The translations under genes and the position numbers were made by a program. From the UHGV virus genome UHGV-0149956: a stretch of DNA of 64,000 nucleotides. One strand, 5' to 3'. Shown in pieces: positions 5,837-55,842 of this stretch (position 1 is its first letter; every line of letters starts with the position of its first letter). The DNA comes from a virus. Below the pieces are notes generated by a model that was given only the letters and a program-made list of their open reading frames with translations, had not been told where the DNA came from and made no database searches.

Positions 5837-5914
5837 GATTTTCCCTAATCAATGTTGTGAAGCCTCATTGTAAGATAAGTAACTTGTCACCCCGCCCTGC
5901 GGACGGGGTGATTG

Positions 5915-29857: not shown

Positions 29858-30250
29858 TTATTCTACGCTTTCGATAAGAAGACCATGTTCATAACATTTA
29901 AGCTCATCGCCTTCATACAGGAATTGGTATCCAACACCACCATCTTCATGGACATTAGGGAATAACTCATAACTCACTGAAGAGCAAATCACACCAATGC
30001 AGCGATCAACTCCTTCTCGTTCTTCAGTGCTGAAAAAATCCTCTTCGGTAAGAACATGAGTACATTGCTCATCAGCATAGGTCGGAAATACATGCTCAAT
30101 GCAATCCGGGTGTTTTAAACCAAGCTGATCGGCAAGCTCGAAAGCACGACGGTATTGTTCAGATCCTGGCTTGCCAACAGTGATTTGCTCAATTTTGTAG
30201 ATTGAAGTCGCTTTGTTGATAGTTTGCTTTACTGTTACTTTATCAGACAT
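29858..30250 (-). CDS. Hypothetical acidic protein
   Basis: 130-aa ORF downstream of origin; hairpin 29824-29850 after its 3' end. Confidence 0.4.
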   Translation of the reverse strand: MSDKVTVKQTINKATSIYKIEQITVGKPGSEQYRRAFELADQLGLKHPDCIEHVFPTYADEQCTHVLTEEDFFSTEEREGVDRCIGVICSSVSYELFPNVHEDGGVGYQFLYEGDELKCYEHGLLIESVE

Positions 30251-30261
30251 AAAAATCCCTT

Positions 30262-30516
30262 TTAGTTACCGCTAATAGCTCGGTTGTAATCATTAACGTT
30301 GCGATTCTTCCTGTTAATCCCCATCAGCATCGTTTCTGTATCGAGGATATACGCTGGCAGATCATCAAAATATTCACTGCTAAACTCTGGCATCCTGCAC
30401 ATAAATGCACTTTTGGGGGCAGGGTGGTTAACCTTTGTCGGCGTCGGCGTTAAATTCGCTGATCGACTCCCGGAGCAACCGCTGAGTGTCAGCAGGAATA
30501 CGCTGGCGAACATTAC
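30262..30516 (-). CDS. Outer-membrane lipoprotein, o-spanin-like (Rz1-type), overlapping frame
   Basis: Lipobox LLTLSGC followed by Pro-rich TPTPTKVNHPAPKS; start inside the upstream gene in another frame. Confidence 0.45.
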   Translation of the reverse strand, partial: VMFASVFLLTLSGCSGSRSANLTPTPTKVNHPAPKSAFMCRMPEFSSEYFDDLPAYILDTETMLMGINRKNRNVNDYNRAISGN

Positions 30517-30850
30517 CCGCCGCAACCAGTTGTTTCTGAACTTCAGCTTTTCGTTCCATTTGCCTGTCAGCATACTTGGCTTGTTCTGATTCATTTTTCA
30601 CTTCCTGGCTGTGAAAATGTTGCTCTGCTTTGTTCATCGTCTCGATGGTCTGGTTAAGATCCATTATTGACTTATCACGTTCCTTAACAGCCTGATCAAG
30701 ACTGCCAATTTTCTCCATGGCTTGCTTTAGCTGATGACGTTCCCATGCAAACCCAGCACCAACAAGTGCGCAAATCAGAACAAGAACACCAGTAGCAGCA
30801 AGTTTCTCCTTCAAAGACAAAGCTGTTTTTAACGTAGAAAAGAATGACAT
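30428..30850 (-). CDS. Membrane-anchored coiled-coil protein, i-spanin-like (Rz-type)
   Basis: N-terminal TM helix GVLVLICALVGAGFAW then charged coiled-coil; 3' end overlaps the lipoprotein gene. Confidence 0.45.
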   Translation of the reverse strand: MSFFSTLKTALSLKEKLAATGVLVLICALVGAGFAWERHQLKQAMEKIGSLDQAVKERDKSIMDLNQTIETMNKAEQHFHSQEVKNESEQAKYADRQMERKAEVQKQLVAAGNVRQRIPADTQRLLRESISEFNADADKG

Positions 30851-30889
30851 GTCTTCCTCCTGAAGAAAAATTATCAATGAAGTCCTTTG

Positions 30890-31735
30890 TTACTGTGCCG
30901 CTTTGTTTAATTCATCAAGAACAGAATCAGGAACCAAAGCGGCGACTGCGCTGGATGTGCTGGTCTTATTTGCTGATGCTTCCGCAAGCGCGGTACCGAT
31001 AGCATGGTTATAAGCAGTTATGGCTACGTTGGCGCTTTCCTTCGCTCGTTCATACTGCTGTTGTAACGCAGTTGTGGGCGCTGTTGTCTGGTTGAAAACA
31101 ACCCCAAACTGTTCAGTTGCTACTTTCAGAGATTCAATTTGCTCTTCTGTTAGTGCTGGTGGGGGAGTGGCAGTGCCGCCGCCTGAACCAGAGCCTGACG
31201 AGCTTCCTGAGCCAGTGTTAAGGGTCTGGTTAATCTCCCCCATAGCAGCGACTAAACTTGATGTATTAAGCGCGTTAACAGCGTCCTCAAGCGATTTAGT
31301 AATATTCACATCACCAATGGCAATAGAGATCGGCAGTTCTGAAACTTCTCGCTCATTAGCACGGCAGTAAACATCCCAACCAATATCGAGTTGAAGCAGC
31401 ATTGACAGATCTGCATAACCAGCCAACAGGTCCGCGTGCTTAGTTGCCAGTTCTCCAATGTTCGTTAAGCCGGTTGTGGTTGTTCTGATCGTTGAAACAT
31501 AGCTGGTAATAGTGTCGGGATAGACAATTGTATCCAGAATTAATCCGGTCAATTCTTCTGCAAGCAGTTTTGCTGTGTTAGCACTGTTTCGTGCCGATGT
31601 TATGGCACCAGGTGTTTTCATCCCACCGGCGGCGGCCAATTTTTTATATGCGGATAACTGGTAGTCTTTTTCCAGCATGATATCTCCTAACTTACCTGAA
31701 CCAGGCCGTCTCCGGACGCTACGGTAGATCCGCAT
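30890..31735 (-). CDS. Hypothetical protein with Gly/Ser linker
   Basis: 281-aa ORF with SGSGSSSGSGSGGG tract; start possibly internal. Confidence 0.35.
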   Translation of the reverse strand: MRIYRSVRRRPGSGKLGDIMLEKDYQLSAYKKLAAAGGMKTPGAITSARNSANTAKLLAEELTGLILDTIVYPDTITSYVSTIRTTTTGLTNIGELATKHADLLAGYADLSMLLQLDIGWDVYCRANEREVSELPISIAIGDVNITKSLEDAVNALNTSSLVAAMGEINQTLNTGSGSSSGSGSGGGTATPPPALTEEQIESLKVATEQFGVVFNQTTAPTTALQQQYERAKESANVAITAYNHAIGTALAEASANKTSTSSAVAALVPDSVLDELNKAAQ

Positions 31736-31971
31736 GAAACAGGGTCACCAACGCATACGATCCCTTTACCATTGACGGTAAACCATGCCCTGGTTGATAT
31801 AGCTTGCCCACCGTGCGTACTGTTTCCATCGGTATGCTGTGCATATTGCTTACCATCAACTAACACTTCTACTCCGTTGACTTTAAGTAGTGGTTCACTC
31901 TCTACAGGAGGCCTGGATGGGAATCCTCCGTGCCCCGAACAAATGCTGTCTTTTGTTGCAATACTTGCCAC
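31687..31971 (-). CDS. PAAR-like domain protein
   Basis: 94 aa, Gly/His/Cys-rich with PAAR-like spacing (SGHGG, HGG, VCVGDPVSCGSTV). Confidence 0.45.
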   Translation of the reverse strand: MASIATKDSICSGHGGFPSRPPVESEPLLKVNGVEVLVDGKQYAQHTDGNSTHGGQAISTRAWFTVNGKGIVCVGDPVSCGSTVASGDGLVQVS

Positions 31972-32052
31972 GTCATCACCAATTATTTGCTCTGATTTTC
32001 GTTATTTTAACTCAGGTTGTTTGTGGTCTAAATGGAGTTCAATTATTGCAAA

Positions 32053-32069
32053 ATTGCTCTAATAAATAT
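32053..32069 (+). promoter_or_regulatory. C1-repressor-type operator 17-mer upstream of uhr-hrdC-dmt
   Basis: ATTGCTCTAATAAATAT. Confidence 0.65.
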
Positions 32070-55459: not shown

Positions 55460-55842
55460 TCACTATTACCAAAGAGCGACTGCTGACAATCAAGCAGTGG
55501 CGCGAAACATACGGACCGGGTAGCAACGTTGTACTGCCAGCAGAAGAAGCGGAAGAACTGGCACGAATTGCTCTGGCATCGCTGGAAGCAAAACCAATAG
55601 GTGCATTCCACATTGCAGAACAGCAAGTTGACGGCACAAGTGACTACATCAAGGATGGGGAGTGGCCTATTGATAATGGAATTATTGAGGTCTACGCCGC
55701 TCCCCCCGTTCCAGTAGTACCGGAAGAAAAACCAATGCCTAATCCTCTTAGCATGTACGCGGTTGATGCTGTTGCCGCTATTGCAGAGGTAAGAGGCTGG
55801 AATGCCTGCCGCGCGGCTATGCTTCATGGGAAAGGAAAGTGA
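55456..55842 (+). CDS. Hypothetical protein with ALASLEA motif
   Basis: 128 aa; ARIALASLEAKP shared with the 423-aa protein. Confidence 0.35.
   Translation: MITITKERLLTIKQWRETYGPGSNVVLPAEEAEELARIALASLEAKPIGAFHIAEQQVDGTSDYIKDGEWPIDNGIIEVYAAPPVPVVPEEKPMPNPLSMYAVDAVAAIAEVRGWNACRAAMLHGKGK

Follow-up and report, generated by a model that had tools for sequence, protein, structure and literature searches.

The 94-aa open reading frame at positions 31687..31971 (minus strand) of the 64,000-nucleotide stretch analysed here (hereafter, the window) is almost certainly upfC of a P1-like myophage, encoding a PAAR-like cone that would be orthologous in role to T4 gp5.4 and would sit on the gp5 spike of the tail. 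This spike-tip identity is correct, but it has already been described and structurally solved for P1. The 4-kb stretch surrounding the gene is 97-99% identical to P1-type phages (P1, P7, RCS47, and vB_EcoM-Ro157c2YLVW), and UpfC itself is identical to P1 UpfC at 93 of its 94 residues, the sole difference being a conservative substitution (S86 here, A86 in P1). The top match in the PDB was chain 9vyi_A (molecule name "UpfC", 94 aa, E = 1.7e-60), again 93/94 identical. Moreover, gene order, GTG start, and neighbours are all equal to those of P1 UpfC (P1_gp066; 9vyi chain A), with upfB downstream and uhr-hrdC-dmt divergent upstream, as in both NC_005856 and RCS47. Judged by this near-identity and shared neighbourhood, the window is a P1-like phage (Punavirus), i.e., a variant of P1, and the open reading frame is upfC (P1_gp066), encoding the same protein. 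The P1 reference record already carries a depositors' note of 31% identity to T4 ORF 5.4, while the product is named "PAAR motif of membran proteins" in RefSeq for P1 and "UpfC (PAAR motif)" in RCS47.

From the letters of the window alone, the first-pass annotation had proposed a Gly/His/Cys-rich, PAAR-like protein at this position, and the reading frame is indeed real: it runs on the minus strand from its GTG start, 4 nt behind a Shine-Dalgarno-like GGTGA sequence, to a TAG stop at 31687-31689, and is the sole PAAR-like open reading frame, in single copy, within the window. As to composition, UpfC is Gly-rich (14/94, alongside 13 Val and 11 Ser), but "His/Cys-rich" was an overstatement for a protein with three residues of each (His at 14, 46, and 53; Cys at 11, 73, and 80). 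Four of these six His and Cys residues align with the metal ligands of T4 gp5.4.

Gene order around the tip gene

The upfC gene heads a short co-directional leftward run of late functions, upfC-upfB-ppfA/mlp-upfA, which is bounded by oriR/repA on one side and by the divergent Odmt/Pdmt region on the other. Directly behind it lies upfB (30890..31678, minus strand; PHROG_1559), whose product of 262 aa is all-helical and has been described as a trimeric "tripod" attached to the tip of the spike; at its revised ATG start (31678), the gene begins 8 nt past the upfC stop, and its ribosome-binding site, AGGAG, overlaps the stop codon of upfC. There follow (i) ppfA (30428..30850, minus strand), an Rz-like inner-membrane spanin gene (PHROG_89 "Rz-like spanin," 1.2e-25; P1 annotation), (ii) mlp (30262..30594, minus strand), which overlaps ppfA and encodes an Rz1-like lipoprotein, the outer-membrane spanin (PHROG_30284 "Rz-like spanin," 6.5e-79; membrane lipoprotein precursor in the P1 annotation), and (iii) upfA (29858..30250, minus strand), the final gene of the run, of unknown function (PHROG_1453; P1 annotation). 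The tip gene had been described as lying between plasmid-maintenance and recombination genes; this stands insofar as repA/parAB are found to its left and hrdC (an RdgC homologue) and dmt to its right, but its immediate downstream neighbours, upfB and ppfA/mlp, are not plasmid genes.

To place this layout in context, genomic surroundings of ever more distant UpfB members were inspected, with homologues of the window proteins located by tblastn. In the reference arrangement of P1 and the window, gene 5 and upfC are 8.9 kb apart, the interval holding uhr-hrdC-dmt, tRNAs, tci, ban, and dbn on the opposite strand, and the closely spaced upfC-upfB pair is followed by the spanin genes, upfA, oriR-repA-incA-parAB-parS, and gene 23. 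In a Salmonella locus (L006) and a Citrobacter plasmid (L014), both with a UpfC of 67% identity, the interval between gene 5 and upfC measures 4.2 kb and contains uhr, hrdC, dam, and small genes on the same strand; upfB is adjacent, after which come ppfA/mlp and then 23-22-21-pmgG-bplB, such that the whole run is co-directional and plasmid genes are absent between upfB and gene 23. In L006, upfB begins 3 nt past the upfC stop. A megablast of this lineage against the phage collection returned nothing, and it was present only as Citrobacter plasmids in PLSDB.

Among the more divergent loci, L017 (UpfC 49% identical) has upfC a mere 4 nt after gene 5, with 2.6 kb of cargo, including a methyltransferase gene, between upfC and upfB, and a capsid gene beyond. 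In L019 (36%), one gene of 260 aa (~1 kb) separates gene 5 from upfC, upfB is adjacent, and capsid and sheath genes follow. Gene 5 falls outside the covered region in the three remaining loci: in L015 (41%), five cargo genes stand between upfC and upfB, with capsid and sheath genes next; in L016 (53%), upfB is adjacent and is followed by a single coiled-coil, spanin-like gene; and in L020 (66%), upfB is again adjacent, followed by spanin genes and a plasmid replicon. Adjacency of upfC and upfB was thus seen in L006, L008, L016, L019, and L020. Among the cargo between the tip gene and upfB in L015 (1047-1550) and L017 (3781-5007) are genes for a RyR-domain protein and for N6/N4 DNA methyltransferases. 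Given that P1 itself carries dmt between gene 5 and upfC, methyltransferase genes would appear to be recurrent passengers at this place.

This synteny is most simply read as descending from an ancestral series of structural genes, 6-5-tip-upfB-(spanins)-23-22-21, to which cargo was added on either side of the tip gene, with P1 having also gained a plasmid maintenance module. The layout in P1 would thus be that of a single series of structural genes interrupted by cargo and plasmid modules: the distance between upfC and gene 5 would stem from the cargo modules (uhr-hrdC-dmt ... ban-dbn) placed between the spike and tip genes, and the plasmid replicon module would have entered between the spanin genes and gene 23.

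The same layout could be taken for that of an "orphan" or "exchangeable" spike cap, as the first-pass annotation had it; i.e., a free-standing cassette swapped between phages, altering penetration specificity, with such exchange explaining its odd location. In keeping with this, 8.9 kb separate upfC from gene 5, the tip gene has cargo modules on one side and plasmid modules on the other, and the segments flanking it vary between lineages. Neither word finds support in the data, however. Far from being an orphan, upfC heads a late run, and its distance from gene 5 in relatives is from 4 nt to 4.2 kb, versus 8.9 kb here. As for exchange, UpfC homologues measure 94 aa wherever the full gene has been called (the tblastn match in L017 spanning the same length), with a cargo or extension domain in no lineage; the strand of upfC and its order relative to gene 5, upfB, and gene 23 are constant in the relatives examined; and the window holds one copy. 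Moreover, UpfC has diverged in parallel with gp5, gp23, and UpfB from the same elements, or less than they have (in L006, 67% identity for UpfC versus 57% for gp23, 50% for gp5, and 43% for UpfB), which fits vertical co-inheritance. With no sign of tip exchange in these data, we reject the swapped-cassette account, which we regard as very unlikely.

PAAR family tests, metal site, and place on the virion

That the protein is PAAR-like was borne out well beyond chance. PHROG_281 ("PAAR motif") was matched at E = 2e-30 across UpfC residues 1-93, and the next matches in the PDB after P1 UpfC were T4-type gp5.4 tips (9f4b_BA, 5iv5_ZA [8.6e-8], and 4ku0_D), along with the Vibrio cholerae PAAR protein (4jiv_D, E = 3.7e-4). 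A profile built from three P1-like sequences only led to the same matches (gp5.4 tips and 4jiv_D). The HMM search that had been proposed as a check gave a match to Pfam PAAR_motif (PF05488; E = 8.5e-6) restricted to residues 51-91, at 26.4 bits and so just under the gathering score of 27; a 0.6-bit miss on such a short repeat model reflects a curation threshold and is no biological property of UpfC.

In an alignment of UpfC, two divergent P1-like homologues, and T4 gp5.4, residues H14, H46, H53, and C80 are invariant. These are the putative ligands of a three-His, one-Cys metal site which, on this alignment, appears to have been kept. In T4, the gp5.4 apex has three His and one Cys arranged around iron, and the H14A substitution abolishes spike binding (PMC12407873). 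The two tips are alike in further respects, with T4 gp5.4 (4KU0, 5IV5) being ~95 aa in length, 30% identical to UpfC, equipped with the same three-His, one-Cys ligands, a monomer capping the trimeric gp5 β-helix, and dispensable for plaques; gp5.4/UpfC is also the only pair of T4 and P1 tail proteins detected by BLAST (PMC12407873). Differences lie in the surroundings. The T4 5.4 gene belongs to the baseplate cluster and follows gene 5 at a distance of 1.1 kb, whereas 8.9 kb and an inverted early-gene block intervene in the window; T4 gp5 has a lysozyme domain, whereas P1 gp5 does not; and T4 is without a UpfB-like tripod, which has been reported for P1 (PMC12810830).

The spike gene to which the first-pass annotation had assigned the cap, at 40895..41527 (minus strand), is that of P1 gp5 (PDB 9vzk_q "Gp5," 8e-136; PHROG_430; Pfam Phage_base_V), the trimeric central spike and binding partner of UpfC. 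It adjoins gene 6 (41520..42536, minus strand; P1 map), which encodes the trimeric baseplate hub that carries the spike (PMC12810830). The gp5 protein of the window comprises an OB fold and a β-helix, with no lysozyme domain, and a search near the C-terminus of its translation found no HxH motif. Such a motif is borne near the C-terminus by spikes that need no separate tip (PMC12407873). In P2 gpV and phi92 gp138, a sharp metal-stabilised spike point is likewise formed, but the tip is fused within the spike chain and iron is bound by three HxH motifs (PMC12407873), whereas P1-type gp5 has no HxH and is paired with a separate monomeric tip. UpfC, with its 94 aa, has the dimensions of such a small single-domain cone.

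Capping of this spike, as had been suggested, is supported by homology, by the kept metal ligands, and by published P1 cryo-EM containing the 93/94-identical chain. In a 3.2 Å map, a UpfC monomer was modelled on the gp5 trimer (PMC12810830); in a second P1 cryo-EM study, UpfC on gp5 was an AlphaFold model superimposed without refinement (bioRxiv 10.1101/2025.07.21.665459). Gonzales et al. (2022) had earlier obtained an HHpred match between UpfC and the T4 gp5.4 tip, yet LC-MS/MS of P1 virions failed to reveal the protein (PMC9024508), a plausible reason being its single copy per virion. Absence from virions had been named beforehand as grounds for dropping the spike-tip assignment; while the proteomic nondetection is on record, UpfC has been resolved by cryo-EM.

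The reported tripod comprises three UpfB trimers anchored to the tip, its medium-resolution density having been fitted with AlphaFold3 models (PMC12810830). Our AlphaFold2 model of UpfB is all-helical (mean pLDDT 83.5), with a disordered Gly/Ser linker at ~158-169. A fold search with this model against the PDB returned only non-specific helical bundles (best E = 0.01, TM ~0.2), and no Pfam or NCBIfam family was matched. The family is small: a set of 1.84 billion proteins contains 88 representatives of it at the 50% identity level. The central Gly/Ser-rich linker, GSGSSSGSGSGGG (residues ~155-172), varies in length among E. coli homologues that are otherwise 90-96% identical.

PAAR proteins also cap the trimeric VgrG/gp5-type β-helix of the type VI secretion system (T6SS; PMC12407873), and UpfC shares the conical PAAR-repeat fold family of V. 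cholerae VCA0105 (4JIV; the E = 3.7e-4 match given above). The window protein could hence be pictured as a bacterial T6SS PAAR protein or effector adaptor, carried as prophage cargo (a "moron") and capping a host VgrG, not a phage spike. PHROG_281 is in fact placed in the category "moron, auxiliary metabolic gene and host takeover," upfC does lie among non-structural genes, and there is a weak match to the NCBIfam T6SS_PAAR_dom equivalog (NF033420; E = 4.5e-9). That match, however, scores 36.3 bits against a cut-off of 124, UpfC has neither an N- nor a C-terminal extension that might accommodate an effector, its nearest solved relatives are phage tips, and upfC co-occurs with gene 5, upfB, and 23-22-21 in all relatives examined. 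By these comparisons, UpfC is related to T6SS PAAR proteins yet is not one of them. With cryo-EM placing UpfC on the P1 spike (PMC12810830), as part of a virion and not of a secretion system, the T6SS alternative is refuted in practice and is left with a minimal likelihood. Scarcely credible at all is a phospholipase or membrane protein, as suggested by GenBank labels of T4-like homologues and of PDB 9f4b ("phospholipase," "PAAR motif of membran proteins"), for no lipase family was matched in Pfam or NCBIfam and the proteins so labelled are gp5.4 orthologues of 94-97 aa with the structure of a spike tip, i.e., the labels are propagated annotation errors.

Transcription of the upfC-upfB pair

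The annotated P1 promoters LP23, LPsit, and LP26 yielded a late-promoter consensus, AACAARTGACTW-N4-TANAAT; scanning the window with it gave 7 matches versus 0.62 expected and recovered LPsit (14127), LP23 (24980), and LP26 (45676), with no consensus match upstream of upfC. The best late-promoter-like site 5' of the gene (32025..32004) departs from the consensus at 4 positions, of which three fall within the TGACT core, and ranks among the 11 best of ~128,000 positions scanned. It shares its -10 element, TAAAAT, with a candidate σ70-like promoter for upfC-upfB (TTTAGA-17-TAAAAT; 32004..32032, minus strand), which agrees with the consensus at 9 of 12 positions, a score not above shuffle expectation. 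Nearby, in the divergent upfC/uhr intergenic region, maps the annotated P1 operator for the C1 repressor, Odmt (Op68), ATTGCTCTAATAAATAT (32053..32069, plus strand).

Further along the run, after the stop of upfB and ahead of the ppfA start, a late-promoter-like site, AACAAAGGACTTCATTGATAAT (30870..30891, minus strand), shows 2 mismatches to the P1 consensus and is unannotated in P1; it could be a late promoter for the spanin genes ppfA/mlp. At the equivalent place in L008 (6776-6797) there is a weaker match, with 3 mismatches. Other matches in the window with 2-3 mismatches are located at 5867-5888 (minus), 43971-43992 (minus), and 55635-55656 (plus).

In L008, an intact late-promoter -22 core, ACAAATGACT, is present upstream of upfC. 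Directly before this core (L008 5600-5680) is a C1-operator-like sequence, TTTGCTCTAACAGATGA, agreeing at ~12 of 17 positions with the operator consensus; the tip gene of this relative might accordingly be subject both to the repressor and to late control. The start of upfC in the Salmonella/Citrobacter lineage is oddly arranged: a GC-rich, terminator-like hairpin with a T-run (cccacaga...tctgtgggcttttttATG; L006 5680-5715) abuts the start codon, so that a Shine-Dalgarno sequence could not be accommodated.

One speculative scenario, to which we give a rather low likelihood, is that the P1 upfC-upfB pair has lost an Lpa-type late promoter of the kind still displayed by L008 and is transcribed instead from the σ70-like promoter next to Odmt, so that its expression would be uncoupled from tail morphogenesis. 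Linked to this, upfC and upfB together would be a conserved cassette dedicated to the tip in P1-like elements, flanked or split by the two cargo-insertion sites of that group.

Proposed role of the tip and consequences for annotation

We propose that a single UpfC monomer folds around a buried metal held by His14, His46, His53, and Cys80, and that it would dock by pseudo-threefold symmetry onto the blunt β-helix end of trimeric gp5. UpfC would be expressed together with the next gene product, UpfB, of which three all-helical trimers would be seated on the tip as the reported tripod. The cone would sharpen the membrane-piercing needle of the tail, which sheath contraction would then drive through the outer membrane. 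With certain host envelopes, UpfC may in this manner aid penetration and raise fitness, as does gp5.4 for T4 on hosts with truncated LPS; there, gp5.4 is dispensable for assembly but is needed for fitness and for infecting truncated-LPS hosts (PMC12407873). Since no phenotype has been found upon loss of UpfC in P1, we infer this functional benefit from T4. Deletion of upfC in P1 left plaque formation unaffected (Gonzales et al. 2022; PMC9024508), and a genome-wide CRISPRi screen of P1 scored both upfC and upfB as non-essential (PMC10695390); neither the UpfC tip nor the UpfB tripod is needed for plaques. Virion position and plaque dispensability, as given here for the UpfC of the window, are carried over from published work on P1 UpfC, to which it is 99% identical.

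The suspicion that the gene had been missed in relatives holds for some of them. An intact upfC lies without a feature in the DNA of MH160767.1 (L010 1501-1782) and OP279344.1 (L003, between 21679 and 22142), and is likewise intact but uncalled at 5713-5997 in L005 and L007. Elsewhere the name is at fault, with many T4-type homologues, as well as PDB 9f4b chain BA, labelled "phospholipase."

A separate correction concerns upfB, for which RefSeq uses a start equivalent to 31735, giving a protein of 281 aa whose gene overlaps upfC by 49 nt. This start is probably 19 codons too far upstream, because the 262-aa form fits PHROG_1559 end to end (a full-length match, 1-263) and agrees with the starts of aligned homologues: complete UpfB homologues are 236-265 aa in length, and all 17 that were aligned start with ML at the revised Met, 12 of them with MLEKDYQL. 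The shorter form is already in use in two other records.

The main result carries little weight by itself, as publications on P1 already cover the identity of UpfC, its place on the virion, and its dispensability, and the window is a 97-99% identical variant of that phage. Its practical use is that it exposes missing or mislabelled upfC genes in several public P1-type records, together with the likely wrong RefSeq start of upfB. Ultimately, it also offers a simple comparative account of why the tip gene looks misplaced in P1, namely that modules would have been inserted into an ancestral 6-5-tip-upfB-23-22-21 run.
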